DNA of 64,000 bases from Strigamia acuminata (taxonomy: Eukaryota). The position numbers were made by a program, and so were the translations under genes. Below, piece by piece: positions 39,128-62,279 of the stretch (position 1 is its first letter; the number at the start of each line of letters is the position of its first letter). The notes below the pieces were generated by a model. That model did no database searches. It was given only the letters and a program-made list of their open reading frames with translations, and was not told the origin of the DNA. Where the stretch lies: NCBI GenBank assembly GCA_949358305.1, contig OX442314.1, positions 5,208,001 to 5,272,000 of the forward strand. Reading direction: 5' to 3'.

Positions 39128-39735
39128 TTGACTTATCAGTCATAATCCAGACAGCAGAAAGACTACCCACCAAGGTACAGTCATGTTAAAAAAAACTGGA
39201 CCCTCACTCTATGCTGGCAATTGAAATTATGAGTAATTTCGTGTTTAGCCACTAGGTGAAACCAGACATCAACAGGTGATAATACTTGTATAATGCTTGT
39301 AAACAAGGGTATACTTGACCATGAGGTTAGGGTTAGCCACATGATCAAAACGGTCAATTTGCCTATTTTTACACTCAGCTCATGTGTTGCTCAAGTTACT
39401 AGAAGTAGCATCATTATGGTGAACAAGATTGGAAGTGTCCAGACACAATTTGTTTTGTCCGTCAACCCATCCTAGGACAAACTACCAACCACGTGGTCAT
39501 AGAACACATGATCGTAGAACACGTGGTCATCATTTACTGATGTGCCGTGTCATTACGCACGGCCCATTGGGCCGCTAAGGTTCCTGAAGTGTGCAGGGCA
39601 GACACTCTCTCCCAAGGTTGTAGCCATGAAGGATGGTTGTCCACAATGCTGGGTCCATCAAGACTCCTTCTTGGGCCATGCTGCAACCCATTGGTCCAGA
39701 GACCACTTCTGGGACTGCAGACCCTCTTAACATAT

Positions 39736-40718
39736 TGTAATGAGCCTGGATTATTGCTATCAAATTAATAACAGCAACAATTCTCTAAACTCATTAATGC
39801 TTAGACAAGACTTATCATAAAAATACTCTCTTTAAACTAAACTTCTTTATTCTAACTTAGAATAAGGTAAATTACAGTGATAAATAAGGCTTAATGGAAA
39901 TAAGAAATAAAATAATAGATGAAATGATGAAATAACTTCCAATCGACGTGGAAACGTTATCTTGACGATTCCAACGTTCTGGCGACGATTTCGGCTCGTT
40001 TCGTCGCGCTTCTACGGCTCTCTCCTCGACGCTCTTCTCGATATTCTCACTCACGGCGTCGCTCCCCGGTGAAACGGACTTATTCCGTGACTCAAACTCT
40101 CGAATTCCCTGGAAATCGTCTGATGCGAATCGACTCACGCCGACTCGCTTGGTCAACCGGACTCTTTCCGTATCGTCTACTACACGTTCTCCGCAACTCC
40201 GTCGTCGTGGCGGCGAAACTGCGACTCTTTCGCACAACAATCTCTTCTCAACAATGTCGTTGAGACAAGATGAAATCTCACAATTGTATTCGTACAATTG
40301 CAAGAATGGACTCTAGCTGGATCCCTCTCAGCAAGAGTGTGGCTTCCCGTGTCACTAGTTGTGGTGGCACAAGATGAATCTAGCTGGATTCTTCACAGCA
40401 AGATTATGAGTATAAAACTTCACTGAGGTTTTCACAAAATACTGGAGGGTTTCTCTGGGTTATTTTGTGTTGTTTCTCTGGCAAAGTTTGTGATCATACT
40501 GAGGAGTTCTCACTCCTCTCAGGACTCATTTCCTGTTTGGAGGCTTGTGGGCTGGTTACCCTGGCAACCACCCACATTTCCTCCCACTCTGTTCAGCTTT
40601 CTTGCCTGTAGACAGGAAGCATAAAAAATACAAAACTTCGACTTAAAATATAATAAATCAAAATATTATTTTACAGACTTTTTCTGTTGCTTCACTAGTG
40701 ACCACTAGGGTCACTACA
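39736..40718 (-). repeat. 3' LTR (983 bp)
   Basis: Matches 53832-54814 except at 39749 (g vs a) and 39975 (c vs t) by eye; AATAAA on the minus strand at 39851-39846. Confidence 0.98.
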
Positions 40719-40732
40719 CCTCCCTCCTTTTT
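40719..40732 (-). promoter_or_regulatory. Polypurine tract (AAAAAGGAGGGAGG)
   Basis: Pure purine run abutting the TG of the 3' LTR on the minus strand. Confidence 0.95.
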
Positions 40733-40764
40733 AGGAAGGATCTCCGATTCTTCCTTTTACTTCT

Positions 40765-43700
40765 CTACTCATCATTTCTGGACTCAAAGCTTGGACCTGG
40801 AATCTCGGATTCGGACACCGAAAATCGGGGCATGCCTTTCATGGGTCCAGATACTGCTCCATTATTTACATGAAACCATACTTCTTTAATGTGTTTCGTG
40901 CGTGGCCAAACTCGATCATAGTCCACGTCATATCTTTCCCGATTCCCTGTAGGTGCCCTTCGAACCGCAATGAGTCTTTGATGACGCACAATTCGTTGAG
41001 GCTCTCTCGACGAGTTTTCGAGCCACTTCAAAGCATCCCGACACAAGGTAGTGCTGTAAATCAACATTGTGCGGGTGGCGTCGGAGACTCTCAGTTTCGG
41101 GTACAGGTATCGAATCCTCCCGAAGTCCATGTTTTTGCTTCGTCTCATTCCAGTTTTTAATGGCTCTTTTGCTTTGGCAAGGCCACGACGCGATCCGTCA
41201 GTTTCTTTCGATGAGGAGTCGTCGCTTCGTCTGGACACTCCCTGCTCGGTGTTGGACTCTACACCGGACTTATTACTTGATTCTGCCCTTTCTAATGCCA
41301 TTCGATGAGCTGTAGGCGTGAACGTGGCTGATGGGGCCTTTTGTGTCGGAACTCGAAATTGCGGAGTTGGTTGCGACATCGCCAAAAATGTTAATGGACT
41401 TAATTCCATGGCTTCCTGAGTTTGGGGTTCGGGTGTCCAGTCAGGTAATGCCTGTGTCGAGAAATCTCGAAATCTCTGCTGGGCTGCCAGATTCGTGCGA
41501 TATTGGAGCCATTCTGCTCTCAGTCTTTGTGCGCTTTGAGATGGAGTTTCCCCACTTCTCAGGATCTCTCGAACCAATTCTGCTCGTAATTTTGGCGGAC
41601 TTCCCAATAGATTTTTCCAATTTCTTAACATCTCTCGTGGAATCCCCATCGGCTCTGTCCATACGAAACTTACCGCAATCAAAGTTGTTTCGTCAGTTGG
41701 GAATACCCCCGGAAACAAGAGTCTTATCAGTATTTTCCGAGCGAACGGCTTACAGTGCTCCAACCATTCGTCTGTCTGTGCTTCGAGGGGCTGTTGCACA
41801 AACTCGAGCGCAAGCTGTTTCATTTCTGCCAATGTCACTTGTAGTTGGACTTGCTGAAATTCATCCAAGTTAGGGGTCAACAGTCCTTGTGAGCTCATTG
41901 GAAATTTAATATACATTCCTCATAATGGCTCATAGTTTTTGTCATAATTCTCGTCTGGTTGCAGTGGAATGTTACCTTGCACAGTTGCAATGGCTGGTCT
42001 TGGCAATGTAAATTCAGTGTACGGACTAATTTCCGTTTGCGGCAACAAGTGTGGGTCCCTCTCGTTCATCACTTTAGCTTCACGAGGCTTCGCCTTCCTT
42101 GGGTCTCTCATTCGATGTGCTGGCCGCAATATCCTTTTCGGGCCTTGTCGTTTCGGCACTTGATTTTTCGATTTTTCCAACGCCTCTTCCAACGTCATTT
42201 TCTCCTGAATGATGGCAAATTTTGGAGGGGAAACTCTTTTCCGCGTTCTCTCTTCACGACGCTCATTTGGCGTTTCTTCCAAAGTGTGTTTTGATGGTTC
42301 CACATACTCGGGAAAACTCTCAAAAGTCAAGTCTTCTGGAGATGAGGCTCTGGGCGTCGGCGTCGTTGGCACGGATGTTGGGGTCCAGGTAATTGGTGAG
42401 TTACTCCCCTTTGATGGAGCTGTTTGAGGATGAGGAGTCTCTTGTTGTGGCGGAGTTTCCGGACGTGGTGGAGTTTCCTGACGTGGTGGAGTCTCCTGGC
42501 GTGGTGGAGTTCTAGGTCCCTTTGTTCTCTCCTCAGGCCTTTCTGCCTCACTCGACGTAGACTCTCGACATTCATCCATGACTACGTAATCTTCATCCCA
42601 CTTTTCATCTGCGGTGTGGAATGATGACGCCGATGACGAATCACTGTCTTGTGTGATTCGTACTCGAATCCCATCCTTTTTGCTCCTCAAAACTTCCCTT
42701 TTTGGACGCATCTTAGAATATCGATGACTGCTCACTGGACGTGGTTTGGAGTGCGACCTCTTTTCTGTCGAACTATTGCTTGTCTGTCGTCGATTTTCTG
42801 TTAACTGACGTTTTTTGTTTATCGGACTCAATTCCGGACTTCGACTGTCTCTTCTACGAGAAGAGGAAACATATTTTACTTTACGCCGCTCCGACGAGTG
42901 ACTTTGATGCTCCCTTGTTTCTTGTCGCATTCTTTCGTCTCGTTCAAGGGGTCTTGTTTCCCTACTTCGGTTTCTCGACGTACTTTGCTTCGGTGGAGTT
43001 TCTTTCCTCCGTCTGTCGCTTCCTCTGTACCGAAGTGCTCCTCGGGTCCTTGCTTCCCTTCCTCTTCGAGCTAACTCATGTTGTTCAGATCGGAATTCAT
43101 CGTAGTTTCTATCTCTAGAATGGTGACTTCTCGATGAATGATGAGGTTTCGGACTTAATTCCGATTTTTGTTGACTTCTGGACGCTGATCGACTTCTCGG
43201 ATGGCGTGCGGATGTTGTAGATCTTTCTGACCTCTCTGGCGGAGTCTTCTCTCGCTGCACCATACTTCGTGGTCGTCTTGACGAATACTCCACTTTTCGA
43301 GTTGTCTGGGGCGGTGTCTTTCTTCGACGCTCTGGACTTGGCTCCTGATCGGCCTGAGATCTTTTATCTCTACGCTCTTTTTCCTCCTTCTCTAGTCGTT
43401 GCCTTTTTACGTAATAGAGAGGTCCAAAGTCATCTCGCAACTCTGGTTTTTCCTTTGACACTGGAGTGATGTGGACACCAAGTACCCCTGCCATCGTCAA
43501 TTGATGCATTTTATATTGAGAGTCCACGTAATAGGGTGGTACAGTTTCCAAATCTGGTTCGTCCAGCAATGCCTGCTCCGCCTGCCATTTCGCCTTCTTC
43601 TCCAAATACTCGGCTGCCACATCCGCCATGCCCTCCTGAAGTCGATTCATTACTTGCCGTGCAAATTGGATTCGATTTGTCGCCGGGTCGCAATAGATGA

Positions 43701-44007
43701 CATAATCCTCCGCCTCCTCTGGAGTCATTGGGAAATCTTCACCTATTAATTCGTTCCAGATTGGTCCGTGTGTGTCCGTTAATATTGAAATTAATCGCAA
43801 CATTTCGTGGAAACACGTTTTGAAACCCTTGAATAGTCTCTTCAGGGTTCCCCAGCGTCGTTGCATGGCTAATGAGATGAATTGTCTGACGTTGGCTGGT
43901 TTGTAGCCTCTCCGCTCGAATATTCTTCTCAACTTTCGATGGATTCTTCCCCGATAGAAGGTTCGTGGGACTCTCGCGTTTTTGGGTAATGCGTCCCATG
44001 ACTCCAT
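40765..44007 (-). CDS. ORF3, unknown accessory protein of about 1080 codons (695 aa + TGA + Gly + 383 aa in one frame); Arg/Ser-rich, not Env-like
   Basis: The junction reads tta TGA gga ATG (41925-41914), so the two listed ORFs share a frame. It ends at TAG just before the PPT. No signal peptide or transmembrane stretch is visible. Confidence 0.85.
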
Positions 44008-44721
44008 TGCTTTCCTTGTCTATAAATTAAATTTCATTAATTTCTCATCTTTTACTAAATTATCCTCAATTGCGTGTGTCATTTTCTTAATTTTTACGTT
44101 TCATAAAATTCTCGCCAGATGGCGCTCTTTCGTATATCGCGACGTATTTTCATGTCGCTTTTCTCAAGTTTTTGCCAATTTTTACTAATTTTGTCACATA
44201 AAACTAATTATTTCTGATAGTTTTAACTTAGTTTTAGCCTTCTTAGCGATATTCCATGCTTATCTCGATCTTTTATCAGTTTTGTGATCGTGTCTCCGTA
44301 TTTACGACTTATTTCGCTTCGTCCCTTACAATCATCGATAAATTTTTACTTTTATGACACGCACAATTGATGAATAATTATAACTATTATTTTGGATCTC
44401 TTATCCTTAGTTTTCTCGACTTAATTCGATTTTTTACTACCTCTTCGTGTACTGGTTTCTTCGGTTTTGGCGGCGGTCGAAAATCTTGATTCATCGTGGT
44501 GTTGATGATTGTTCCGTCCGGACTTCCTTGTAAATCCTGTTATTTGTTCGATTGATGCTTGATCTATATTCCTTCAGCGTTTTTGTTGTTGTTTTGAAGA
44601 AGTCTTCACACATGTGATTTTGCTCCACGTTACATCAACATGTGGTTCGTTCGACCAATCACAATCGAGCTGCGACGTCGTCCACTTCCGGACTCCCGAG
44701 TGACGTCGCTACCTTCTATTT

Positions 44722-47700
44722 TTAGAGGTAGTCTGGAGGTTTAATCCTCCCTCTGTCTCGAAGTGGATATTTCTTCAAGACAGCTTTCTTTTTAATTGTT
44801 TTGGGTTGATTTTCGCGCAGATCTTTATATCTTTGTTTTGCTTTCACTTTTTTCACCACTTCTCCCCCCTTTTTAGGAAACGACGCAACTTGTTCGTCTG
44901 TTTCTACAACTAAATTTTCCGGAAAAAGTGGCGTTTCTTTCTGTGATTTTTTCTGCAAAGTTGCGCTTAAATCTTCATTAATTTCTTCACTTTGTTCGAC
45001 TTGCTGACCGCTTGGAATTGTAGATTCCCTTTCCTCATTATTTTCCGTGTCTGATGAACTTGGTGTTGTTTGTAATCCTTGTTGTTCTTGCGAAATTTGC
45101 GAATCTTGCAAATTTTGTGTTTGATCCAAAATTTGTGATTCCTCTGAATTTCCTTGATTTTGCGAATCGTCTAAATTTTGCATTTGACGCAAAGTTTGAG
45201 ATTCTATTGAATTACTGCCTCGTATTTGTTCATTCTGCACGTTTTGCGAACTCTCCATATTTGCAATTTCTTGCATTTCGGATGTTGATGGCTCGTCGAA
45301 CAACGTGTTAATAATTTTTCCTTCCGGGTTACTTTGTGTTTGGCCTTTTTCCCAAATTTCTTGATTAAATTCCGGGAAAAACGGCGTTAACTCGGACATG
45401 TGAATGGAACGTAAGATCTTATTATCTTTAAGTCGTCTTAATTTGACAGCTCCGCCCTGGTGGACTTTAATAATAACATATGGCCCACTTCTTTTGTCGG
45501 ATAATTTCGCAGAAATTCCCTGCGACGCTTTTGACAAAGTGTGATCTTCTTTCCATACGAGGTCATTTGTTCGAAAATCTTGGAATTTCCCATCTAATTT
45601 ATGGTTGTCCACACGCTCACGAAGGTCCATGATGTGTGCCATCATATGATGGTACGTGTCGCGAATGACCTTCTCCAATCGTTGGATGTAAATGTGCGGC
45701 TTATTTGGGTCAATTTTCAAAATTCCATCCAAAATTCGAGGATCCCACGGTATCCTGAATTCTCTGCAACAATTCAAGTATGCTGGCGAGTAATCTCGGC
45801 CTGTTGTTGCTGTTGTGCGTATACTAAACGCTATCTCTCTTAGATATTCGTCCCAGCGTTTGTGGATCGATGTGTAAATTGACAAAATATATTTCAGGTC
45901 TCTGTTGGTTCTTTCCACTGTGTTGGCTTGGGGATGATATGGTGATGTAAATCGCGGCACAATTTTGAACTTTTTACAAAATTCATGATAAAGTCGTGCT
46001 TTAAATTGCGGTCCGTTATCCGATATAATCCGGAGCGGAAATCCCCAGCCCATGCATGTGTCATACAAACAGTCCGCTATATCTTGTGCCACCGGGTCTG
46101 CCAGTGGATAAAGTTCTGGCCAACGAGTGGCTATATCCAAAATCACCAAGATATAGTTATTTCCTGTTTCCGTTCTAGTTAACGGTCCTACTAAATCGAT
46201 ACTCAAACATTCAAATGGCGCATATGGGCCGATTTGAGCTGGTTCCACTCGTGTTTTTGTTCTGGGTTTGCATGCTTGGCAGCGAGAGCAATGTTTAATA
46301 AATCGAGCTGTATCTCGTTTCATCCCTTCCCACGTATACACTTGTCGCATACGATAAAGTGTTCGTGCTATTCCGCAGTGGCTCGCCAAAGGATGTCCGT
46401 GCATTTGCCACAGAACTCTAAATCTTAATGATCTCGGCACTACAATTTTAAGTGCTCTCGAATCCTCTGTCAAATCATCCGACATTGTTGGGTGATATTT
46501 GAGTAAAAGGTTTTCCTCTACAATGTGTTTCGTTGCCAAGATGCGATATTTTTTCCTATGCAACGGAGTTTTCACGTATGTGGGAAATTGCTCAGTCTCA
46601 AGATAATGTCGCATGGCCTGACAGTGGCGGTCTTTGATTTGGTGATCAACGAGCTCTTCTCGTGTCGGCGGTGTGCAGTTCGCCTGTTCCGTCACTTTTG
46701 CAATAAATGCCGTGACCATCTCGTTTTCGGAAGTTGGCATGTACTGCCATTCTTTCTTTTCTTTTGGACTTGTTTCCATCTCTTCACTAGGCGCACTATA
46801 CACCTGACACCAATATGATGCAACTTCTTTGTCTACAGTCAATGGTCGTGGCAATTGATTCCAATTCCCCACCACCCATTTGCGTGGCTCAGTTGGACAA
46901 TATCTCAGATCGCCGTCGGCTTCTCCTGTGTCCTCCGCGTCGCAAATTATCTGAATTGGTGCCCTGGACAATGCGTCTGCCAAAGTGTTGGTTGTCCCTT
47001 TCAAATACTGAATTTGGAAATTGTAAGACATTAATTCCATCTGCCAACGGGCAAGACGGCCTGCTGGCTCTTCCAGTCTCATCAACCATTTCAGCGCCTC
47101 ATGGTCAGTTTGTACGACGAAGCTCGTAAACTCGAGGTACGGTCTAAATTTTTGTAGTGCTCATATGACGGCTAAACACTCGAGGTCGGTGGCGCTATAA
47201 TTGAGTTCTGCCTGCTGCAGACATCGGCTGATGTAAACGCATGGCGATTCTATCATCTGTCCGTCAATTTCCTTCATCTGCATTAAAGCGGCGCCCAAAC
47301 CCTTTTTGCTTGCATCTGTTCTTACGATGAAAGATTGATGTAAATTCGGCAAGTGCATTGTCTTTGCATCAGTCAATAACTTTTTTATTTCATCAAATGC
47401 AACTTGGTGCTCATTTTCCCATAGGAACTCTATTCCTTTCTTCAACAGTGGGCGTAGTGGTGCCGCTACAGTTGCCAAATCTTTCAGAAGGCGGTGGAAA
47501 AAGTTGACCATTCCGAGGAATCTCTGGAGCTCAGTCAAATTCTTTGGCGCTGGAAATTCCGAGATTGCCGCTACTTTCGCGGGGTCTACACTTAATCCAT
47601 TAATTCCTAATTTATATCCTAGGAATTTGAGTTCTTTTCTGCAGAATTTGGACTTGGTCGGATTCACATGTAATCCGGCTTGCTGTAGTTTTCCCAATAC

Positions 47701-49776
47701 TGAGTCCAAGTGCTTCATATGCTCAGCATATGTCTTTGATACGATCACTATATCGTCCAGGTAGGCCCAAGCATATTTCCTGAATGCTTCGCCTAATACC
47801 TTTTCAATCAATCGCTGAAACGTTGTCGGCGCGTTGACCAGCCCGAAGGGCATGACATTGAACATTAAACGGCCCATGGGGCTCCAGAAAGCCGTTTTTG
47901 GGCGATCTTCCGGTCTCAAATCTATCTGCCAATAGCCCTTTGTTAAGTCAATGGTCGACACCCATTGGAATTCTCCTAATTCTCTTAAGATTTCCGTAAT
48001 GGTCGGCATTTGTGGTGGGTCATAAAGGGTGTGTTCGTTTAGCGCTCTGTAATCGATACAGAGGCGTGGCTCCGAACCTGGTCTCATTACCAGTACGATT
48101 CGCGTTGCGTAATCCCCTTCAGCTTCCGATACATAGCCTTTGTCGATCATCTCCTGGCAGAGGGTCCTTAAAATTTCGCGCTTCTGTGGGTTCCATGATT
48201 TAAATGGAACTCGGATCGGTTTATCCGTGTCTAAGTTTATCGTGTGTTGGAGCACGTGTGTTTTTCCAGGATTCTTGCTGAGTATCTTCTCATATTTTCT
48301 CAGCACATGCTCCAATTGTGCTGCCTCTGTTAACTGCAGTTTAGCTTCTTCGATCATGTCATGGACTCCATTTCCAACCTTCAACCTTGCCTCGAATGCA
48401 CAAAAGCTACTTTCTTTTCTAAATGTCTTCAAAGACGATTCAGGCTCTTCTTTCTTTTGCTCATATTTATCAAGAAGATACTGTGGCATGTAAGGTTGCG
48501 GCACATCGATTGTCGTGATGAAATTCCATTTGCCGTTGAGTGGATTCGGCTGTATTTTCATCCTTTTCATCGCGTCGTTGCCGATTAACATGAACTTCAT
48601 GTCGTGAGGCAACACGAGAAAATATTGCTGCATCATCCCATGAGTCCATCTGATCATCATTCTTATTGTCCCCATAGGTTGGACCTTTTTGTTCGCTGTA
48701 TTTATAGTCATGTTGGCTTTGAGGGGCCAAACTTGTTTCTCCAATCCCATCGCTTGAATCAGTGGCCAAGAAATGCAACTGCGGTTGGCGCCAGAATCCA
48801 ACATCGCGGCGATCGAACCTTGTTCTGTCTTGATGTCAATGGTCGTCATTCCCTCTAAAACATCTTCTTCAGGGAGTAAAATGTTAAAGACTCTAATTCT
48901 TGGTCCTTCTGGCTCCAAAGTTGTTAGTTCCTTTAGGAGTGGGTCCCAGTCCACTGGTTCAACCGATGTATCAGTCATCCAAGCCGCTATTGATGGAGTT
49001 TCTTCATAGGTCTTTTTTACCTTTGTCCAAAAAGTAGTCGCCTCATTTTCTTGTACCAATTTTACATCTTTTAATGCTTCGGTCACTTTGACTGTGAAAT
49101 ATGATTTGTCAAATTCATTTGACCGGTAAGCTTCTTGTATTACAGACGGGCAATCTTTTATTTCTAAAGGTGGGAATCTCATTCCAACGAGTTGTCCACA
49201 CTCCATGTCGCAAATCATTTCCCCTCTTTTGGGCATCGTGCCGATTGCTTCTGGTGGCGTAAGTATTACAGGAATAGTTGTATTTTTTAGCGGTCCATTA
49301 TCGTATAAATTATCTGGTTTTGATGAACACCCGGCTACTTCCGGTTTTGGTTCCGTTGTTGCTTTTGGAGCTGGAAATTTTATTCCCACAACTTCACCAT
49401 CTTCGAAATCAACAACTATTGTTCCTCTTCCACCTTCCAAAGTTCCAATTACTTTGCGTGGTTTTTCAATCAATTCCGATTGCACATATTCTCCAGTTTT
49501 GCTATCCTTGATGAACCGTGATCCTGAAGGTGCTTTTGCTGTTGGTTGAGTCTCTTGGATGTCTTCAGTCAGATCTTGTGACTCCACCGATGTTTTTAAT
49601 ATTAATGAAGTCTCTATTACTTTTTCATCTATTGATTGGGTCTCCGATAACCCTTCTGAATTCTCCACTACTTCCACGGATAGAGCTGTTGTTGGTTGGG
49701 CATCTTGCAGTTTTTCCGAATTTTTTGTCAGCGCGAGCTCTACTGCTTTTCCTGAGCCCGCGCGTTCAAGTTTTTT
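44722..49776 (-). CDS. pol: Pol polyprotein (protease, RT, RNase H, integrase with GPY/F motif), -1 frame relative to gag, one in-frame TGA at 47163-47161
   Basis: LDSGA (~48797), IDLTKGYWQI, MPFGLVNAP, YLDD (47763-47752), TDAS, ECLAVI*ALQKFRPYL...TDH, H-H-C-C zinc finger, DLVGP / SDNGPQF / VER catalytic DDE, and SGPY. Confidence 0.97.
49731..49776 (-). promoter_or_regulatory. Programmed -1 ribosomal frameshift signal
   Basis: A AAA AAC in the gag frame (49776-49770), a 6-nt spacer, then a 10-bp stem gcgcgggctc / gagctcgcgc (one G-U pair) with a 13-nt loop; the pol frame is open from 49797. Confidence 0.88.
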
Positions 49777-52700
49777 GTAAGGTTGTCGGATAAAGAATTA
49801 ATGAGATGTTCCATTTCTTCTTTAGACAACATTCTCTTTGGCTGTTGACATTGCCGTACTCAGTGTCCAACTTGGCCACAATTATGGCACGGTGCATTCT
49901 CCGGTGTCAATTTTACTTGACTGGTCTTATTACCATCTGCTGCGCCGCCTGGCGTAGAAGTCTGTCCTTTATTTTCACTTAATTGTGGAGTTTGTACTTC
50001 TAATTTTGAGTTGAAGTCGACAGAGTACGGTTTGGTCGGAAAGGACGAATTTCCTTGTGTCTGTGGCTGCACAACCATTTGATGTGGCAATCTTGTTTGC
50101 ATTTGCGGCTTGTATTTTGTTATCGCTGGATTGTTCCGTGTAAATAATACGCTTGCCGCATCCATCAAAGTGTTTAATTCATTTTCCGAGTAGTCTGTCA
50201 ACATTATTTGTGTATCACCGACTGATTCGGTTGCTTCGGACGGGTCTTGTACCCATTTGACCGTTGGTCGCGTTGGCACTCGTGGCTGTGGATAAGGTGA
50301 TGGTCCACTTTCTTGTTTTTTGGTGGACCCTTCCTCCCGAGATAATAAAAATTGCGAGCGTGGGCGCATCATTTTTGCACCGGATCTAGTGTAGTCTGAG
50401 TGGTGTCGCTGCAGGTCATCCCGTGCTCTTTGCTCTTCCAGCGGGAGGTCTGATGCATATCTGTCATCAATATACATTTGATTGTTCCTTATAAATTCTT
50501 GTAATTTCTCGAAAGAGCTGGCCATTGGTGCATCCACCATTCTTAATACCTTCTCGGAAAAGGGTGTCAGACCATTTCTGAATTTTCTATCTTCGTCGAA
50601 ATCGCTGATGTGATACGGGAGCTGAGCAATTAGATCTTCTGTTCGTCTTAAGTAAGACCGAATGTCTTCGCCCAACATTTGTTTGTGGTTGTCCCAATAC
50701 TTTATCATCATTGCATTGGACTCCCCGTATTCTTTCATAAATGCTTTTACAAATTCATTCCAATGCGTGAATTTATTTTTTCGGAACCAATTTGTTGCTC
50801 CACCAACCAACATTTTTGGTATCAACTTGTGTAAAGCCACATCTGGGTCCATTTCGTGACTTGTCACTACGTGCATCACTTCATCTAAGAACTGGGTTCC
50901 GATTTGCCATCCTCCGTCGAACATGTCCGGATTAATGCGGTCCCACTTGATTTGGTGTGGTGAGTTGTAGTAATGTGTCCAATTATCAGTACAATATTTC
51001 AGAATAAGCTTCCTTAAAACTTCCTCCATTTCCTGAGACTTCGAAGGAATTTGTGACAATTTTGAATCAATCTGTCTCGCGATGATTTCTTCTAATTCTC
51101 TGGAACTAGTTGGTAATGTGTTTGATGGGGGCGGATCTCTGTTATCCGAACGGGATTTCCCTCTATCCCATCTCTCACCTTGTGGCCTTGAGTAGCTATA
51201 CTCTTCTCTCCTTCCTCCTTGATGTCTGGAGAAATTGGGTTCTTCACGACGAAATTGCTCAGAATGTGAGTATTTTCTCTCACATTCGTGTTGTGATGGT
51301 GGTGGACTAGAACGTGACCTTCGTTGGTCTCGGTATGAGTCGTCTCGTCGCCTATCGGAATCTTCATGTCGTCTGCGTGACTCATCACGTTGCTCATGTG
51401 AATCTCTATTCGTATAGGATTCGTACCAATAGGAGCCTCCGTCTCGGCGCGATTCCCTTTGGTTATCACTTTGTTGACGTGGGTCGCTTCTGCTCATCGA
51501 CTCATTTCGATTGTAACAGCTTTGTCCAGTCGGACCGTAGTCACTTTGTTGACGAGTCTCGTCTCTGAAGCGGGCGTCACTTTGCTGGCGTGGTTCGTCT
51601 TGATAACACGATACATTTCGCATATCTGTATCATTATGCGCTTGCGTTTCATTTGCAAATCGTACTTCACTGCGCGAACGGGCTTCTTGACGATTGTACG
51701 ACTCATTTCGTAAATTGACATCTCGTCCTACATGTGGGTTTGGTCCAACATATCTGCCGTCTTTTGAACGAGAAGTATCTCGATTACACGACTCATTTCG
51801 TGGATTCATGTTTTCAGGTTGCTGTGAATATTTGCCCTGTAGATAGTCGTCATAATTTCTAATTTTTGTGTAACTGGCTTGTCCAGTTGCTCCATCTTGT
51901 CCGGTTGCAGCATCTTGACTATTGCTTTTATCTTGCTCCGGAACTTCTTGATCATGTTGGAATTTTTGTTTTTCACTTTCGCGACCCATTTCGCGTTGAC
52001 TATCCACTTGTTGTTTCATCTGTGTTTCCCGCAATCTTCGCCGATCCTCTCTTTCATTGGCTTCGGCTACCTGTTCAACCGCTTCCATGAACGTGTATGA
52101 CCTTCGATGGGCGGGGTTCTCATCGTCTCGAGCGTCTTCAAGATACTCTCCCAAAGCTTTGCCTCCACATGCGCCTTTTGTTGCAGGATTACTGACATTT
52201 TCAGTCTCTAATGGAGTTTTGCGGTCTCTGTCTTCAGAATCCATTTTTCTGCGTGCTGTCTGCCATTTTTGAAATTCGTCCGGATCCACTCCTGTTACTG
52301 CACCTTGTTTTTTAATTGGTCCAGCAGGTTGGTCCGTTGCACGCTGACGATTTCTCTGTGCAATCACGTCCAGCACGTCTGGATTTTTTGCTGGTGAAAC
52401 CGATGCTCTTTTAGCATCTCTTCTTTCATCCACCTCACCTCTCCTTTTTAAAGGATTCGCGGATGCGCCTGGAGATAGATTGACTACTTCTGGGCGATAG
52501 GATGGAACTCTCGTCGGTCGCTCGTAATTGCATTGTGCAATATACTTAATTTCATCCAATTCTCTCCGGACTCTCTCCGTTTCTTCTTGAGCTTCGAAAG
52601 CTGCTTGACGAAAATGATGAATATCTCTTTTCTCCGACTCGTCCATCGCCTTCTGTTTTGCAATTAATGCCAATCGTTCCGTCTCCACGCGGACTTTCTC

Positions 52701-53705
52701 CGCTTCAATTCTCTGCCTTTCGGCTTGGATCGCTGCTCGATCGGCCGCTACTTCCGCTAGCCGTTTCTCCTGCGAGTCTCGATACTCGTTCGCCATACGT
52801 ATTTTTTCTTGCTCGACACGTTGATTTTCGGCACGTATCGCATCTCGATTCGCTAATTCTTGCGCTTTACGTCTATCACGTAATTCTTGCCGTTCTGTTG
52901 CTAGGCGGATTCTTTCAGCTTCCATTCTGTCTTTCTCCGCTTGCATTTCTCTGTCCAATTGGTCTTTTTTGGCACGAATTTCTGCGTCTACTCGGTCTTG
53001 TTTGGCGCAGATCTCCGCTTCTGTCGCTTGTTTGGCCAATTCTGCTTCATACTTCGCCTGGCGTGCTTGGTGTTCCTCCATTTTTAGACGTCTCACCATC
53101 TCGTACTCTTCCAAATGGAAATCCTGTAGCTGCCGGGTGCTGGCTTTCATCGCATCCGTGATTTTCGCAACGTCTTCATCGGAAAGTGTAACGCCTTCTG
53201 CGTACTGACGCTGTCGCTCTGCCAATCGATCTGCATTTTCCTGCATGAGGTCGGCGATGCGCTGGCGTACTCGCGACAACTTATGTCGGGTCGGGGAATT
53301 TTCGCCCGAATTTTCCGCGTCGTCTTTCGCTCTCTGTTTAGCCGCGTTGTGATAACGTTTTATCAACTTCCCTCGTTTGTGAGCGACTGCAATCACTTGT
53401 TCCAATGACATGTTCGTTAAATCAATCTTACTGCTTGGAGTTGATGGCACACTGGGCGAAGTTTTGTCGACTGGCGAGTTGACACAGGGCTCTTCCCTTT
53501 GAGTTTCTGGTGACGTTTCTAACCAAAAATCTTGACCGGTTAGCCGGTGCTGTTCGGGGTCTTGATCCGATTCTTTTTCCGGACTGGATGATGAATCGAA
53601 ATACGGCTCCGCTGCTCTGCCGATCGCTCCTCCGGCCGTACCGCCTCTTGTGCGGACTCCACGTCTCGTTCCTCTCCCTCTCCTCGAATCTTGTGGCAAC
53701 GACAT
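49740..53705 (-). CDS. gag: Gag, 1321 codons, with one in-frame TGA (49862-49860) inside the CCHC zinc knuckle
   Basis: Capsid-like FDGG...LVGGATNWF...WNEFVKAFMKEY...QMLGEDIRSY; CHNCGQVGH*VRQC; the frame continues to TAG at 49742-49740. Confidence 0.93.
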
Positions 53706-53818
53706 TTTTGTTACACAGAATAGAGAAGAAAGAAACAGAAAAACTTTCTAACACAAATTTTAAAAGACAAAATGGTGGTCCCTCAACTGAAGATAGTTGT
53801 TAAGGTTCAAATTATTTA

Positions 53819-53829
53819 ACGGGCCCCCA
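53819..53829 (-). promoter_or_regulatory. Primer-binding site, tRNA-Pro-like (TGGGGGCCCGT)
   Basis: Lies 2 nt downstream of the 5' LTR; 10/11 match to the standard tRNA-Pro PBS TGGGGGCTCGT. Confidence 0.8.
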
Positions 53830-53831
53830 GG

Positions 53832-54814
53832 TGTAATGAGCCTGAATTATTGCTATCAAATTAATAACAGCAACAATTCTCTAAACTCATTAATGCTTAG
53901 ACAAGACTTATCATAAAAATACTCTCTTTAAACTAAACTTCTTTATTCTAACTTAGAATAAGGTAAATTACAGTGATAAATAAGGCTTAATGGAAATAAG
54001 AAATAAAATAATAGATGAAATGATGAAATAACTTCCAATCGACGTGGAAACGTTATCTTGACGATTCCAATGTTCTGGCGACGATTTCGGCTCGTTTCGT
54101 CGCGCTTCTACGGCTCTCTCCTCGACGCTCTTCTCGATATTCTCACTCACGGCGTCGCTCCCCGGTGAAACGGACTTATTCCGTGACTCAAACTCTCGAA
54201 TTCCCTGGAAATCGTCTGATGCGAATCGACTCACGCCGACTCGCTTGGTCAACCGGACTCTTTCCGTATCGTCTACTACACGTTCTCCGCAACTCCGTCG
54301 TCGTGGCGGCGAAACTGCGACTCTTTCGCACAACAATCTCTTCTCAACAATGTCGTTGAGACAAGATGAAATCTCACAATTGTATTCGTACAATTGCAAG
54401 AATGGACTCTAGCTGGATCCCTCTCAGCAAGAGTGTGGCTTCCCGTGTCACTAGTTGTGGTGGCACAAGATGAATCTAGCTGGATTCTTCACAGCAAGAT
54501 TATGAGTATAAAACTTCACTGAGGTTTTCACAAAATACTGGAGGGTTTCTCTGGGTTATTTTGTGTTGTTTCTCTGGCAAAGTTTGTGATCATACTGAGG
54601 AGTTCTCACTCCTCTCAGGACTCATTTCCTGTTTGGAGGCTTGTGGGCTGGTTACCCTGGCAACCACCCACATTTCCTCCCACTCTGTTCAGCTTTCTTG
54701 CCTGTAGACAGGAAGCATAAAAAATACAAAACTTCGACTTAAAATATAATAAATCAAAATATTATTTTACAGACTTTTTCTGTTGCTTCACTAGTGACCA
54801 CTAGGGTCACTACA
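53832..54814 (-). repeat. 5' LTR (983 bp)
   Basis: Direct repeat of 39736-40718, followed on the minus strand by the PBS and gag. Confidence 0.98.
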
Positions 54815-55122
54815 ATATTTAAGCACCCTTGGATAAAAACATTAGATGCTCCTCTGTCAGAAGACGGTGATCTTCCGGCTTATGGTGCCCTTTGCAGCAC
54901 TCGGCTTCCCTAGACTACAGCCCTTTTATAGCCGAAAGGTTAAGGTGGCCATACCCGGGTGCAAGGAGCTGCCAAGAGACACTATTGGTGCGGCAGTAAC
55001 TATGTCTAATATTGTGCCATTCAACCCTATCTTCTTCCTACAGGTCACCCAGTCCACTTCCAGGATCGGCAGCTTCCCTAGTGTCAACAGGGAATCATTG
55101 GTTAGTGTGCAGGACTGAACTG

Positions 55123-55503
55123 AGAACAAATTTAGTATCAGAAAATCAGGATACGTCGGGCCATGGAAACAAATTTTGTACCGGAAAATCTGGATACGTC
55201 GGGCCATGGGAACAAATTTAGTACCGGAAAATCTGGATATGTCGGGCCATGGGAACAAATTTAGTACCGGAAAATCTGGATCCGTCGGGCCATGGAAACA
55301 AATTTTGTACCGGAAAATCTGGATACGTCGGGCCATGGGAACAAATTTAGTACCGGAAAATCTGGATATGTCGGGCCATGGGAACAAATTTAGTACCGGA
55401 AAATCTGGATCCGTCGGGCCATGGGAACAAATTTTGTACCGGAAAATCTGGATGCGTCGGGCTCGGGCCATGGGAACAAATTTAGTACCGGAAAATCTGG
55501 ATA
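55123..55503. repeat. 43-bp minisatellite, about 9 copies
   Basis: gggccatgggaacaaatttagtaccggaaaatctggatacgtc; variants recur with a 3-unit period. Confidence 0.95.
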
Positions 55504-57809
55504 GGATTGACCACGACAAAAGGACGGGCCACCGGGGAATTCCCGGAATCCAGCCGGGCCAGTGTTAGTATCCTGCCGGGCCAGTCCAGCACTGTTAGTG
55601 TGATCATAGCTGTACTGCATGCCAAACAACACTACGAAGAGCTGCATGTGACACAACTATTATATACCAATCTTCTCCATTCATTCCCACAGATTTCCTT
55701 TATTTTAGGAAAGTGAACATTCCCTTTAATGTCAAGCTGCAACACATACAAATAGATGGCTTTGCTTCCAATCTATTGATCAAGAATGGGGGAAGGAAAA
55801 AAAGAGAGAAAGCCCAACACTATCATTTCCCTCGGTAAATGGCACCACTATACCTTGATGTCTTTTCAACTGTTTTCCTATTTTTCCACAAAGTTGGTCA
55901 AAAAAAATTGTTTCTTTTGACGTGATTCCTTTTTCTCCTCCTTTTACCATTTATAATTCCTCCGTTCAACGGTTTTCGATCGAGGAAAGCAATATGCTCT
56001 CCCAGCGGGATCCCTAATGACGATTTAGAGCTAAACGTATTTTGTTTCCTCGAGTTGCCACAAGGCGGCCGTTGCTAAGAGTCATCCAATCACCATGATT
56101 GATTCCCAATTCTGCCACTAGGATCTTATCACCAAGCGCCTCGAGAACACCTGGCGGCCGACTCCCGAATGTGAATAACGATCAAATAAAAGTTAATTAT
56201 TTCATTTCTCAAACGCATCAACTTTTAATTGTGCGTCGCGCACGCGCACGAAGGGGTTTCCGAGTGTGCCACTTTGGGTGTGTGTGGCACCTGACTTCTT
56301 TACGAGTCCTTATTGAGTTGTAGTCGTAAATCAAAGCTAATCTTAGCGAGGCGAATCAAAATTCATTTAATTTCGGGACCCAGCCACCCATTAAACGCCC
56401 CGCACTTATTCTTAATTTCATTGCACGACAACAAGATAAATGGCGGCGTCCAATCAAATTCATCGACTGCGGATCGTCAACGTTCCGTAACGAGAACCGG
56501 AAATTGTTTTCAACTCCGAAGAAATAAAATTAAAAAATATAAAATTAAATTTTTCTAATAATAAAAAAAAATTCCAAAAAAAGGAAAATGGATTTTATTT
56601 GTCACGAGCGTGTGTTCCAACCTTTTAAAATTTTCACTTTTTCTTTCGTTCCTCATTTATGTTCTTAATTTATGCGTGCGACCTTGTCCTATCTATTTAT
56701 TTTTATTACAATTTAGCGCGTATCTTTTTGTCACAATCGAGGATTTAAAAACCGAACGTTGTTACATATTTATTTATTTATTTTTTATTTATTATTTCTT
56801 TTATTTTTTTTTATTTTTTATTTATTATTTCTTTTATTTTTTTTTATTTTTTTTTATTATTTCTTTTATTTTTTTTTATTTTTTATTTATTATTTATTTT
56901 ATTTTTTTTTTATTTTTTTTTTAATTTTTAATTTAATTTTTCCTTTATTTGTTTGAATAGGAAATTACAAGATGGTTGATGGCGTTTGACAGCCGTCGTT
57001 TCTTTGTTGGGAGCGGAGGAGTATAAAGTAACGCGGGCGCACGTGAGAGGCGACGAAACGAGCGCTAGACGGCCCTCCAAATTAAGCCGCACCAAAAGGT
57101 TTTAAGTTTTATATATGCCTGGCCGTTTTCCGTGTTGTTTTTATTGCCTCTGCTATGGAAATGTTCACCACTTTGTCGTTACCAAAAAGCCTTATACCTC
57201 ACTACAGTTTTAAAATGAGATCGATTTCTTGCTTGCAAATTATTTTCCTCATTCTGCGAGCTTTGAAAAAAACGATGTCGCTAATGGCGAAACAAACAAA
57301 AAGATACGAGGATGGGTCGTTGGCTGCTTCGCCAATGATACAAAGAATACGATCGGATGATCATCAAAATCAATCACAACACATGCTAGGAAATGAGTTT
57401 GTCTTGGCAACGGACATGGCAGTCTGTAGTAACGGACATGCTCGCTCGAAGTGAATTAATTGTTAGTTGGAGCGATTTAATGTGATCTTAACCCTCTTTC
57501 GGTGAAATGAACAAGTTGTCGAGACTCTTTTCCGAAGCGCTTTAGTGTAATCAGCGCCCTCTTTCAATAAAGCAAACAAGTAATCGCGACTTTACTGATG
57601 CGTGAAGAAAGATGGCAGTCATTTGCCTGCTGACCAATCAGAATTAGAGGATTCTCAGATAAAGTTTATATTATTGCATCCGCACCTACGGGCTGATCAG
57701 TTACAGGTAAATCAATGAAATTTAAAAACTGACGTCACAATCTATCAGAAACCTGCTGCAGCAATGACACTAAATTAATTGCAACTATCGTATTTCTCCG
57801 ATTCTGCGG

Positions 57810-58410
57810 TGAATTTCACCACAAGAAATTATGCAGGTTTGAGCACATTAAGAAATTACATTGTATTGTTAGAAATACAATGCATAAGGTATCATGCAGC
57901 TTCCATATTTTTCTCCAGCAACAGTTGGCCAGGTTTTGAACAATAAAGAGATTTCACTTCTGATAGTGAAGTGGGCTTGGTTTAGTGAAGTGAACAGGAT
58001 CAGGGGCTTGGTTTAGTGAAGTGAACAGGATCAGGGGCTTGGTTTAGTGAAGTGAACAGGATCAGGGGCTTGGTTTAGTGAAGTGAACAGGATCAGGGGC
58101 TTGGTTTAGTGAAGTGAACAGGATCAGGGGCTTGGTTTAGTGAAGTGAACAGGATCAGGGGCTTGGTTTAGTGAAGTGAACAGGATCAGGGGCTTGGTTT
58201 AGTAAAGTGAACAGGATCAGGGGCTTGGTTTAGTGAAGTGAACAGGTCAGGGGCTTGGTTTAGTGAAGTGAACAGGATCAGGGGCTTGGTTTAGTGAAGT
58301 GAACAGGATCAGGGGCTTGGTTTAGTGAAGTGAACAGGATCAGGGGCTTGGTTTAGGTACAAATGAAGTCTTCCTGTGTTTATTTTCCCATTTGAAACCA
58401 AAGATGTAAA
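57810..58410 (+). repeat. Dispersed repeat family, copy 3, containing a 31-bp minisatellite (about 12 copies, 57973-58356)
   Basis: The flanks match 1801-1950 and 15112-15196; unit ttagtgaagtgaacaggatcaggggcttggt. Confidence 0.92.
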
Positions 58411-59384
58411 AGATTCAAAGATGCACTTTTTTTTCAAACATACATCTCCAAAATGGGGTGCGTTGAAGAAATAGGGTATCTTGCGGTGTGGCGATATTGT
58501 ATCGACATAAACATTCTATCTACTTTATGCCAGCAAAACAAAGTGCAATATTCATGGAGAACTATGAGAACTGGTCTGCAGATGAATGTCGCAAGATGTC
58601 TGGGAAAAAGCTTAACTGTATTTCTTGACCGTTCCGTATATATCCTATCTAAAGAGCGAAAGGACGTCTTCTATGTTGACATTCATTCATTATTCAGCTC
58701 CTTTTCATTTGTAATGCTTTCCTAACATGTTTCTCTATCAACACTTGACAGTGCTGGGATTAAAGGATAATGCCCAGACGACCGATTTCTAAAAGCATGG
58801 TCCCACTGGGTCACTTAGTTCAAGTTTGTCACATTCACAACAGCAGGAGCCCTTGACTCAACTTTTGTTTTATCTAACACTTAGCCGGCTACAAAAATAG
58901 CCATTGTTTAATTAGTGGAGAATTAAGTCAACGGTGTTTAGCCGGAGCAGTGATAGCTTATCTGAGGATTTTTATCCTCGTTGGTTTAGCATATACTGGA
59001 GATATCAGGGATTGATTATTGATTGGTCAAGTGAAATAATAATGAGAGAGAACAATGAGAGCTGAATAACCTTGTGGCCTTTGGGTATCGAATGTATATC
59101 GCAGGGAGGTGAATTTCACTATCAAATGAGTTCATCTAGACTGTATCTGCTGACAGTGTATTCTCAATTATTGGAGCTGGACATTGGAACAAAGACTGGA
59201 TATCTATATCTGCAGGTGCTGGAGATGGAATGGAAGTGTCGTAATTAGAATTAATATTGAACGGTGTTTGGAGAATACAAGTTGCTTTGTTAACCATTAA
59301 TAGCCGCTCAATATTTTTCCCAATAATCATTTTAATCAAGTTTAGCTTTAGCACAATTGTTACTGATTATTAGTTATTACTCAT

Positions 59385-59460
59385 AACACAAGTGTTTATT
59401 CTTAGCGATAACAAAAGTGTTATTCTTAGCGCTAACAAGTGTTTATTCTTAGCGATAGCA
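59385..59460. repeat. About 23-bp tandem repeat, 3 copies
   Basis: aacaagtgtttattcttagcgat units. Confidence 0.8.
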
Positions 59461-62279
59461 AAAGTACTCATTGTTACACGGGAAAAAAAGGAGATTTACA
59501 TACTTGTAAAACATTGTAAATATAAAGATAGATGCATTTTACAAGTTTGGAAATTAGATTTACAAAAAATTGAAAATAAGTTTTTATTAATATTAAATGC
59601 TCGGGATATTAAACGGGATGATACGGTACATGACTTTTTTTTACAATAACTTTACAAACATTTTCAATTGTGTAATTTTGAAATTTTACGATACATTTTC
59701 AATATATTTTCAATAAATTTCCAAATTTCCTACCATTATAAAAAATCTCCTACCCACCATTTTGAAAATTTCAAATACTCTAGATTGTCAGCAAGAAAAA
59801 CCTACTTTCACAAAAGTAACAAAAATTTAACAATAAAAAAATCGATTTTTACAAAAACTATTACTTTGCTCACATTATTCACAATTACATCATTCCAACA
59901 TCCAGTCTGATCTTATCGTAACGACAACATACGAAACACACGCATAATACAATCTGATTATGTCCCACCCCTTTTTATATCCCCTTTTTTATATTTATTT
60001 ATTTCCGGTTGCTGGTCCAACTCGGGGTCAAAACCAAGCAAATCGAGTCGAAACTTGGTCAAGTGTGCAGGGAGTGGACTAGAGGTTGAAGTTGCCTCTT
60101 AAAGCAGACGGAAAGAAAGAAAGACGCTCCATCTCTTTGTCCAAACTCGTCGGCCGCCATTAGAGGTAGAATGATAATAAAGGCGGCGTGCATTGCAGAG
60201 AAAATTACATTTACGTTGAGAGCAATTCGGGCTGAGAGCAGCACTGCCGTTGGTCGGCTACGGAGGCTCTTGTAAACACAAACACGCGGCGCACAATGAG
60301 ATTGTTATCGCCATGGTAACGAAATAGGTCTAATCCCAAATTGTTAGGCTATATCATAAAAAAGGAGGTCTGTATTTATTACGTTTTTCAAGAAGAAAAT
60401 GAGCGTTGAAAGGGAAAATAAAAACGATGAAAACTTCTTTTTATTGCGGCCATTTTTCGATTTTTTTTTATTTTTTTATTTTTTTTTATTTTTTATTTTT
60501 TTTTGGAACTTTTCTTTTAGTGATGATTTAAGAAATTGAAGGGAAAGAGAGAGAGAGAGAAAAAAAAGTGACAGTTGCGACGAGAATTTCATTTCAGCGA
60601 GGATTAGCCCAACTGACTACTTGTAAAAACAATAGCAGCATAAATCCAAAAAGCCGACGTCTGCTAAGGATCACATCAAATAGCGATTTTCTTTTTAAAC
60701 TGATGAAAAACTAAGTCGAACTTTATTGTTTTTTAGTGGACATAAAATGCAGATTATCAGTTTGACCGATCTAGAGTTGGCGGTGTAACGCAACAGTATT
60801 TAGATTTATTTTATTATATGTATGATTTTGCAATTTTGTAATTTTGCATTAATCACAAACTCAGTATTTATCGATGCCTCCAAAAGAGAGATTACGTTCA
60901 ATTAACCCAGTCAATTTTGTGATTGTGTGATCTGGACAATTTTGTAATTTTTCGCTATTGTCAAATGATATCTGTTCTACCAATCACATTCACATTCACT
61001 AAATTACAAGAGAGTGAAAACACAAAATCCTAAAAAGTTCTAAAAGGTAGTTTTTGTGATTTTGATAAGAAGTGATTTTGAGGCTTGTGAAACTCAAAAC
61101 AAAATGGAGGCATCCAACCTCTATCTAAGTGGCCAACTTGTATCCTTGTATATCTTCAATATGCTGATGCATCCGTGACTGTATAACAGCTAGGAAACTC
61201 AAGTAAAGGCTCTGGTGCAATCTGTGAAACTTATGTTTATTAAAATGCACTTTATTAAAAAAAAATTTTGTTCCATCACACAGATAAAACTAGTTATTTT
61301 ACATCACATTTTAAAATTGGTTGCGTACAACTAAAACCTAATATTGATAAATTCCAATTTTTAGGTTAAAAAATCGATATATTCTCATTTTTATGTGGAA
61401 AAAAAATCGATTAATTTCTAATTTTTACGTATAAAAATCGAAAAACTCACATATTTAAGTTAAAAAATCAATAACTTCGCATTTTTATGTTTAAAAAATT
61501 CCCATTCAACGTGCATTATAAATGTCACTATCGCAGTGACCCCCAACAGAAGAAACCGGTACAAACACCGAACTAAAAACAGTATTCGGTATTCGGTATT
61601 TTCTTACAAAACACCGGTTCTTGATACCGGTAAATACCAGTAGACAAACACTACATTGACGTCCACTCTCACAGTATATTAATTCCCTCTAGCGGGAATA
61701 TTAGATACCACCACTTGATGCGTGTTTTTCCAAGATGGAGGATCATGTTTTTACTAAGGGAGTAAATTATTTCATTCTTTTATTTTGTGCTGGACGGAGT
61801 CGGCGAGTGATTGTTGCTCGGCATGGGGGTTGCGGAGTCGATAATCCTCGGTGTATGTTTTTTTTGCTATGAATTATCTTTATTCGGGTGGAAGATAATG
61901 CGATAAAACATGAGGTTATAAATTTTGAATGTGTTTTTTTGTGCGTTTTAAATTATTTATGCTTGTAAATTAGGTTTCGCTTTTCGACATCAGTCATTGA
62001 ATGGAATTATCATCTCGGGTAGGTTTTTTACCGCTAATTTTAAATTTAAATTCCCTAATTCCCTAAATTTAACAATTTATTAAATATTCTAATCTGATTT
62101 TTGTAAATAATAATCGGCTAATGTAAAACTCTAAAGTTTTAAACTGCATTGAATTTTGTTGCGTTAAAGAGGAAGGAGCAGAAACCGTGTGCAAAACATC
62201 ACATGGGTGACTACACGTAGTTCCAGTTCAGTTTGTTTTTAGCTCATCGTAATGACATGGCGGGCACAAGAGCTCATTG

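Follow-up and report, generated by a model that had tools for sequence, protein, structure and literature searches.

Origin of three in-frame TGA codons in a young Ty3/gypsy retrotransposon copy of Strigamia acuminata

Introduction

Dead Ty3/gypsy copies with nonsense codons are common. One retrotransposon in the 64-kb window (the whole stretch of DNA that was analysed) raises the question of why each of its three open reading frames is interrupted by the same nonsense codon in the same context. A sequence-only reading of the locus had regarded neutral decay as unlikely and had proposed deaminase editing, a programmed switch or a consensus error instead.

Results

Anatomy of the element

The element is a Ty3/gypsy LTR retrotransposon and a young copy. 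Paired TG...CA LTRs and a short target-site duplication are both present, and the coding order runs from gag to PR-RT-RNaseH-IN (Pfam and PDB matches). The LTR pair differs at 2 of 983 bases, exactly as the sequence-only reading had counted, and about 12.3 kb of coding sequence is without frameshift, as are the 19 homopolymer runs that the ORFs contain. The PBS-like stretch may resemble the 3′ end of a tRNA-Pro.

Table 1. Features of the element in window coordinates
Feature	Position	Strand	Description
5′ LTR	53832..54814	-	983 bp, TG...CA
3′ LTR	39736..40718	-	983 bp
PBS-like stretch	53819..53829	-	2 nt past 5′ LTR; assigned from sequence
gag	49740..53705	-	1321 codons; Retrotrans_gag and CCHC knuckle (Pfam); interrupted by one TGA
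pol frame	44722..49797	-	1691 codons; PR-RT-RNaseH-IN (Pfam, PDB); interrupted by one TGA
ORF3	40765..44007	-	1080 codons; orphan, R/S-rich centre; interrupted by one TGA
A AAA AAC heptamer	49770..49776	-	-1 register, gag/pol overlap; predicted frameshift site
Polypurine tract	40719..40732	-	adjoins 3′ LTR; a sequence-based call
Target-site duplication	39732..39735 and 54815..54818	.	ATAT, 4 bp
gag TGA	49860..49862	-	after knuckle His; 86 nt upstream of slippery site
pol TGA	47161..47163	-	in RNase H; Trp-type column
ORF3 TGA	41920..41922	-	in frame

The closest solved structure was Ty3-G Gag-Pol (PDB 7q5b, E = 1.5e-105). The element resembles known Ty3/gypsy elements in its LTRs, 4-bp duplication, polypurine tract, CCHC gag, PR-RT-RH-IN order and predicted -1 frameshift, but departs from them in its total length of 15.1 kb, its 1321-codon gag, its 1080-codon orphan ORF3 and its RT-RH, which is 29-46% identical to the best 120 of 2592 database matches. 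The best identity among 32 shorter protein matches was 58%, and no close sister copy appeared among the matches listed in either protein search. A locus scan of metagenomes returned 2 distant loci (25% and 43%), and a scan of viral contigs gave no match. No second piece of the element was found elsewhere in the window. Among 136 stop-to-stop frames outside it, picked mainly by length and complexity out of 603 of at least 40 codons, there was no convincing Pfam match; an innexin match (E = 0.006) was under the cut-off and the remaining matches fell on tandem repeats.

ORF3 is a putative orphan, non-env accessory gene. It matched no Pfam or PHROG family and has no transmembrane stretch (highest 19-residue hydropathy 1.13); the lack of a Pfam match and of a transmembrane anchor, together with the R/S-rich centre, led us to reject an errantivirus env identity. 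Searches with the last 384 residues gave no match among 3331 longer candidates or among 1.84 billion representatives. Other long gypsy elements also carry a further gene that is not env, and ORF3 recalls such accessory ORFs as Cer1 CERV (PMC10309623) and the extra ORFs of Retand (PMC11963269). No sequence likeness was found for ORF3, however, and CERV is described with a Cys-finger domain rather than as an R/S-rich protein.

One TGA interrupts each frame

The sequence-only reading had described one in-frame TGA followed by G in each ORF, and we recovered all three on the minus strand (Table 1). Each is the sole TGA of its frame and has G directly 3′; the genuine terminators are TAG, TAA and TAG, and the rest of the frames are whole, with no frameshift. 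The TGG codons that are left, put earlier at about 50, number 52 (11 + 27 + 14), and the 17 that have G next are unaltered. TGA therefore makes up 3 of the 55 codons in the Trp box (TGA:TGG 3:52), that is, the element otherwise avoids it. The sequence-only reading had called W typical of the RNase H motif, and the pol stop column is W in 61, Y in 16 and F in 15 of 120 homologues.

We calculated the odds of this pattern under strand-symmetric neutral decay with the rate scaled by the LTR clock. At least three stops had P 0.07-0.09, three stops of a single class P 1.1e-3 to 2.5e-3 per copy, and a single class with all three ORFs hit P 2e-4 to 6e-4. The claim that neutral decay seldom yields such a pattern was borne out, with P 1.3e-5 to 3e-5 per copy for all three being TGG>TGA. 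G after all three stops had P 0.043 and a spread of one stop per ORF P 0.19; class, context and spread were all features picked after the fact.

Sister copies carry sense codons at the gag and ORF3 sites

The copy was compared over 8.1 kb with sister contigs from three public samples (X1, X2 and X3, from two studies). Individual sites are listed for 40 of the 143 differences, the gag and ORF3 stop sites among them, and for 40 of 1940 rows of another comparison that include none of the three stops; absence from a listing was not counted as identity. At the gag site (49860) the sense letter accounted for 22559 of 22559 depth in X1 (9 contigs), 1547 of 1547 in X2 (1 contig) and 1294 of 1294 in X3 (5 contigs). 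At the ORF3 site (41920) the corresponding values were 703/703, 291/291 and 106/106, with 1 contig each, and the X1 and X2 contigs there match the window in all but 3 of 359 letters (99% alike). A further sample, X6, yielded 4 contigs only. No RNA run was among those listed as containing the element, which says nothing about its expression. The longest contigs in the runs reach 29-48 kb and the runs look genomic, so the sense codons in sisters are unlikely to reflect RNA editing. Contigs lose rare variants and minority alleles, and because the three samples contain 46-55% of the words of the copy, its closest kin may lie outside them.

The copy differed from the near-fixed state of the sister contigs at 54, 66 and 111 places, so the earlier figure of around a dozen substitutions covers the late changes alone. 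The LTR clock puts these at about 13, with a 95% range of 1.6-48. Among 67 distinct rows listed, 29 were near-fixed in all three runs; these comprised 17 synonymous, 8 missense, 2 stop and 2 non-coding changes (P 7e-5 versus neutral). In the rows listed, divergence from the sisters is thus mostly synonymous, which indicates a lineage that was under purifying selection until recently.

The substitution spectrum and possible deaminase editing

We next consider whether, in the replication round from which this copy came, the minus-strand cDNA took a few hits from a host cytidine deaminase, each on the second C of CCCA (TGGG in the sense strand), and the copy was killed in this way. TGGG is the context of every one of the three stops, and for a TGA product this is an A3G-type GG target (PMC4574155). 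A motif restricted to TGGG with about 10% of sites hit gives a likelihood of about 0.09, and AID/APOBEC-like genes have been reported from nematodes, arthropods, molluscs and further invertebrates (PMC5889660). The 29 near-fixed rows listed also lean in this direction, with 15 G>A against 3 C>T, and a fourth GGG event may underlie the serine of the integrase motif LASHCG, a position that is G in 90 of 97 homologues. A conserved-column screen found 38 of 212 columns deviating; these deviations are mostly family divergence, so the screen cannot list private damage.

The complete tallies, which count every position where 90% or more of the depth departs from the copy, spoke against this explanation. 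Sense G>A did not exceed A>G in any of the three samples (15:16, 18:19 and 34:33). G>A outnumbered C>T (15:5, 18:4, 34:10), but A>G likewise outnumbered T>C (16:9, 19:12, 33:14), and Fisher tests of G>A/A>G against C>T/T>C gave P 0.53, 0.14 and 0.48. At the implied rate, a general GGG motif predicts about 12 further events in the stretch compared, whereas the X1 tally allows at most 5-6 (P 0.015-0.035). None of the 21 non-stop G>A rows listed lies at the middle G of GGG, and a 3′ G follows in 3 of the 21 (4.3 expected). Three TGA out of three has P 0.019 under an A3G-like GG process, and A3G disfavours G at -1 (PMC4574155).

By the criteria of PMC4866542, APOBEC editing is recognized by at least 10 clustered G>A changes in runs of at least 5, by dominance of G>A over A>G and over sense-strand C>T, and by a motif common to the edited sites. 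The longest G>A run was 4 among the 67 rows listed, which combine several sisters instead of comparing a single pair; G>A did not dominate over A>G; and among the rows listed TGGG was common to the stops only. Edited elements carry a mean of 22.7 clustered sites, with none found in 19 invertebrate genomes (PMC4866542), and A3G hypermutation is typically all-or-nothing (PMC3310730). The copy resembles APOBEC3-edited ERVs and hypermutated HIV proviruses in having Trp-codon stops through sense G>A (PMC4866542, PMC4574155 and PMC3310730), but unlike them it has no TAG or TAA products, clusters, excess of G>A over A>G, or GG/GA context bias among the rows listed. Among the papers listed in the literature search, none reported that a gypsy element of an invertebrate had undergone G>A editing. 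Of the deaminase proposal, the directional excess, clustering and context bias elsewhere thus failed to appear, while a sparse, TGGG-specific version survives; we rate deaminase attack as a doubtful explanation, though the best of the alternatives. Slightly more doubtful is the specific form in which the stops are the footprint of an invertebrate AID/APOBEC-like deaminase that has an unusual liking for CCCA and edits retrotransposon cDNA sparsely, and equally so its corollary that genome screens overlooked such editing because they required dense clusters.

Other explanations

A systematic assembly consensus error at one motif could have produced all three A's. The four-base context is identical at the three sites, the stops are absent from every sister contig at the gag and ORF3 sites, and of the two LTR differences, the one at 39749 versus 53845 repeats the trinucleotide change of the stops on the opposite strand. 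However, the intact homopolymer runs and the near-identity of the LTRs point to an accurate assembly, and the 17 TGG-G sites are unaffected. A motif fault should also hit both strands, whereas in none of the rows listed was the second C of a sense-strand CCCA altered. A literature search on motif-specific consensus errors and edited stops in retrotransposons gave nothing usable. We consider such an error improbable.

Marginally less probable again is that the stops are common to a minor non-autonomous subfamily, which intact sisters copied in trans and in which the stops built up over several rounds. The number of differences from the near-fixed sister state would suit a sub-lineage, one poorly sampled in X1-X3 and prone to loss from contigs as a minority allele. 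Against this, the divergence is mostly synonymous (17 of 25 coding non-stop changes among the rows listed), unlike that of a lineage freed from selection; X1 and X2 contigs almost identical to the copy at the ORF3 site carry the sense codon; and the single class of all three stops is left unexplained.

A-to-I correction of premature stops occurs in fungi. Programmed recoding would mean that the three proteins are gated by readthrough of UGA, by A-to-I editing or by a host code in which UGA is leakily read as Trp. It would fit a single stop in every ORF, each at a Trp-type position, with the rest of the frame whole up to the terminators TAG, TAA and TAG, a likeness to readthrough and fungal A-to-I systems; the local folds spanning the gag and pol stops had z -2.2 and -1.7. 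But the sisters have sense codons at both sites compared, the 120 nt downstream of the stops show no folding beyond that of shuffled sequences (z -1.44, -0.05 and -0.42), and a predicted -1 slippery site for Gag-Pol is already present. Stop leakiness follows the +4 base in the order C>U>G>A, and programmed readthrough contexts are UGA-C and CUAG (PMC4615788), so UGA-G, found at all three stops, is not a leaky context. The copy thus differs from readthrough systems in lacking family conservation at the gag and ORF3 sites, in its G at +4 and in the absence of any stimulatory structure found. At those two sites the proposed switch is refuted for the family as a whole; it has no support from context or structure and is very improbable. 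Further candidates were rejected: a UGA=Trp code (in the element's codons, TGA 3/55 against 64-74% A-ending in the Glu, Lys and Gln boxes, P 6e-20), RIP (too few changes) and selenocysteine (the pol column is Trp/aromatic, not Cys).

Discussion

Our preferred explanation, in which our confidence is evenly balanced, is that this is an ordinary dead copy that gained its nonsense changes late, their sameness being a coincidence picked from a large scan. We infer this look-elsewhere argument. A recently inserted copy of a multi-copy Ty3/gypsy family would have gained the three TGAs late, either during its final replication round or once inserted, as the LTR clock suggests. The gag stop would truncate the zinc knuckle, and its place ahead of the predicted -1 frameshift site means that Gag-Pol would be blocked as well; for these reasons the copy would be dead irrespective of the other two stops.

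Counted against ordinary decay were the low per-copy probability, the near-fixed bias toward G>A over C>T, and a CpG effect. The GC>AT rows listed are CpG-enriched (14 of 32, against 0.235), which would favour CGA-derived stops since 96 CGA codons are present, yet there is none.

The sequence-only reading judged correctly that such a pattern would seldom come from neutral decay, but neither its programmed switch at the gag and ORF3 sites nor a directional deaminase signature was found. What it had itself set against its interpretation, changes of every type without a G>A bias beside sense codons in sisters, is largely the picture observed.

As an ordinary dead copy the element is of little importance, dead young retrotransposon copies being ordinary, and the recoding idea fails where it was tested, at the gag and ORF3 sites. 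Restriction of LTR retrotransposons by invertebrate AID/APOBEC-like enzymes has been proposed from phylogeny (PMC5889660), though a screen of 19 genomes did not see it (PMC4866542), and if the deaminase explanation were true, the stops would be in vivo evidence for it. Apart from this, the orphan ORF3 offers a modest lead of its own.

Structure of the element and position of the stops

The element has 983-bp LTRs with TG...CA ends that differ from each other at 2 places, and is bounded by an ATAT target duplication. Its gag carries a CCHC knuckle and is followed by Pfam domains in the order PR-RT-RNaseH-IN. As the top PDB match was Ty3 Gag-Pol, domains and match together identify a Ty3/gypsy retrotransposon. 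Reverse transcriptase-RNase H identity to database proteins was at most 46% (best among the 120 matches listed), and the element is a young dead copy of an apparently undescribed gypsy family. The flanks (1-39735 and 54815-64000) are gene-poor, with many minisatellites (periods 17, 20, 23, 25, 31 and 43) and short inverted-repeat elements (e.g. 31597-32020 and 18363-18756); neither a tRNA nor a host exon was found in them. Such repeat-rich surroundings and the named homologues give the impression of an invertebrate animal as host.

The sequence-only reading had reported one in-frame TGA followed by G in each ORF, and all three were recovered when the minus-strand frames were read. The true terminators of gag, pol and ORF3 are TAG, TAA and TAG, respectively, and 52 TGG codons are left in the three ORFs, 17 of them with G next. 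Homologues have W (61/120) or Y or F (31/120) in the column of the pol stop. In gag, the stop precedes the A AAA AAC heptamer by 86 nt and would therefore abolish Gag-Pol besides Gag. A 10-pair hairpin is situated about 6 nt downstream of the heptamer (100 nt folded, z -0.3).

Features of the element
Feature	Position	Strand	Remarks
Element	54814 to 39736	minus	LTR at each end
gag TGA	49862-49860	minus	in frame, then G; sole TGA of the frame
Slippery heptamer A AAA AAC	49770-49776	minus	-1 register; predicted frameshift site
pol TGA	47163-47161	minus	in frame, then G; sole TGA of the frame
ORF3	40765-44007	minus	1080 codons; orphan
ORF3 TGA	41922-41920	minus	in frame, then G; sole TGA of the frame

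Comparison with sister copies

Sister copies were taken from three public runs (X1, X2 and X3; one species label, two studies) that contain 46-55% of the element's words; the source sample may be among the three. Their longest contigs, 29-48 kb, point to genomic DNA libraries, the library type not being on record and one being guessed as DNA. The short contigs matching the element (3024, 1763 and 1209, respectively) carry many alternative letters and thus represent a multi-copy family. A sense codon occupied the gag site in 22559/22559 of the X1 depth (9 contigs), 1547/1547 of X2 (1) and 1294/1294 of X3 (5), and the ORF3 site in 703/703, 291/291 and 106/106 (1 contig each); 3/359 letters of the X1 and X2 contigs over the ORF3 site were unlike the window. 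These data show that sense codons are the common family state at both sites. Since contigs lose rare variants, other copies may also bear the TGA.

Summed contig depth over 41142-42683 was about 15-fold below pol in X1 and was also lower in X2 and X3, and an X1 contig has a loose end at 40738. Contig depth is not copy number, and there is a weak hint that many copies may differ in the 3' half of ORF3. At the 5' end of gag, about 14 differences to sisters are bunched within 220 bp (53400-53618), a pattern suggestive of recombination with another subfamily. A G>A change at 40592 relative to all sister contigs aligned is common to both LTRs and so arose before or during the last reverse transcription.

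A second comparison covered places within 41840-49940 where 90% or more of the depth disagreed with the window; the 40 of 143 rows listed took in the gag and ORF3 stops. On the sense strand, from sister to window, G>A, A>G, C>T and T>C numbered 15, 16, 5 and 9 of 54 places in X1, 18, 19, 4 and 12 of 66 in X2, and 34, 33, 10 and 14 of 111 in X3. None of these full tallies has a directional excess of G>A over A>G; purine transitions lead both ways (Fisher P 0.53, 0.14 and 0.48). Near-fixed in all three runs were 29 of the 67 distinct rows listed in the first and second comparisons together (15 G>A, 8 A>G, 3 C>T, 2 T>C and 1 T>A; 17 synonymous, 8 missense, 2 stops and 2 non-coding). The synonymous excess among them (P 7e-5) indicates that most differences were inherited from a lineage under selection and that late changes are few. 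Among 21 non-stop G>A rows listed, none lies at the middle position of GGG, 3 are followed by G (expected 4.3) and 9 are in CpG. GC>AT differences listed across 39736-54814 were CpG-enriched (14/32 vs 0.235, P 0.009), and CpG observed/expected was 1.08 for the element vs 0.91 for the left flank; the enrichment may reflect methylation of the element's family or synonymous NCG turnover.

Origin of the three stops

Single-base changes in the three ORFs were counted by class, several spectra being assumed, and late decay was simulated, the LTR clock supplying the number of changes (2 differences/1966 bases, or ~13 changes, 95% range 1.6-48). At least three stops had P 0.07-0.09, stops all of one class 1.1e-3 to 2.5e-3, one class with all three ORFs hit 2e-4 to 6e-4, and all TGG>TGA 1.3e-5 to 3e-5. 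The claimed rarity under neutral decay thus holds per copy. Its degree depends on which features are counted post hoc, and the copy was picked from a scan of ~250,000 windows. The most likely reading, to which we give about even odds, is that the stops are late nonsense changes in one dead young copy and share one class by coincidence. Against it stand the 15:3 ratio of G>A to C>T among near-fixed listed rows and the CpG enrichment, which would favour CGA-derived stops; none is present.

A possible but unlikely alternative is that sparse motif-specific deamination made the stops. TGG-G to TGA is a product of the APOBEC3 type (A3G), but A3G chiefly yields TAG and disfavours G at -1 (PMC4574155), and if GG targets were hit equally, the probability of TGA at all three sites would be 0.019. 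Editing by A3G is typically all-or-nothing (PMC3310730). Edited vertebrate elements average 22.7 clustered G>A sites, with none in 19 invertebrate genomes (PMC4866542), whereas the longest G>A run among our listed rows is 4. AID/APOBEC-like genes occur in many invertebrate groups (PMC5889660); a literature search covering few subscription papers, without supplements, found no report of such editing of an invertebrate gypsy element. A general GGG-middle motif predicts ~12 further hits in the compared stretch and the X1 tally allows at most 5-6, but a narrow TGGG motif at ~10% of sites fits (likelihood ~0.09). Of the deaminase attack first proposed, the general form fares poorly, also for want of a directional G>A excess; the narrow version survives as the bold reading.

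Assembly error is improbable, as near-identical LTRs and 19 homopolymer runs free of frameshifts indicate accurate assembly, and no matching other-strand change occurs among interior rows listed. One LTR difference does fit it, being the same trinucleotide change on the opposite strand (39749/53845, TGG vs TGA on the plus strand). The other (39975/54071) is a CpG transition.

Programmed recoding of UGA at all three stops, the switch by readthrough or A-to-I editing put forward earlier, is very improbable: it fails at gag and ORF3, where sisters read a sense codon at full contig depth, leakiness by +4 base follows C>U>G>A so that UGA-G is not a leaky context (PMC4615788), TGA makes up 3/55 Trp-box codons vs 64-74% A-ending in the Glu, Lys and Gln boxes, and shuffled sequences fold as well as the 120 nt past each stop (z -1.44, -0.05 and -0.42), although windows of 150 nt with the gag or pol stop at their centre give z -2.2 and -1.7, respectively.

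ORF3

ORF3 had no family match in Pfam or PHROG, and its last 384 residues had 0 matches among 1.84 billion representatives, a separate small lead. Its R+S content is 0.41-0.42 at residues 271-450, the two ends being more hydrophobic. Having no family, no transmembrane stretch and an R/S-rich centre, ORF3 is not env. Its differences to sisters among rows listed are mostly synonymous, so ORF3 appears to be under selection. Our guess is that it may be an RNA-binding accessory protein.
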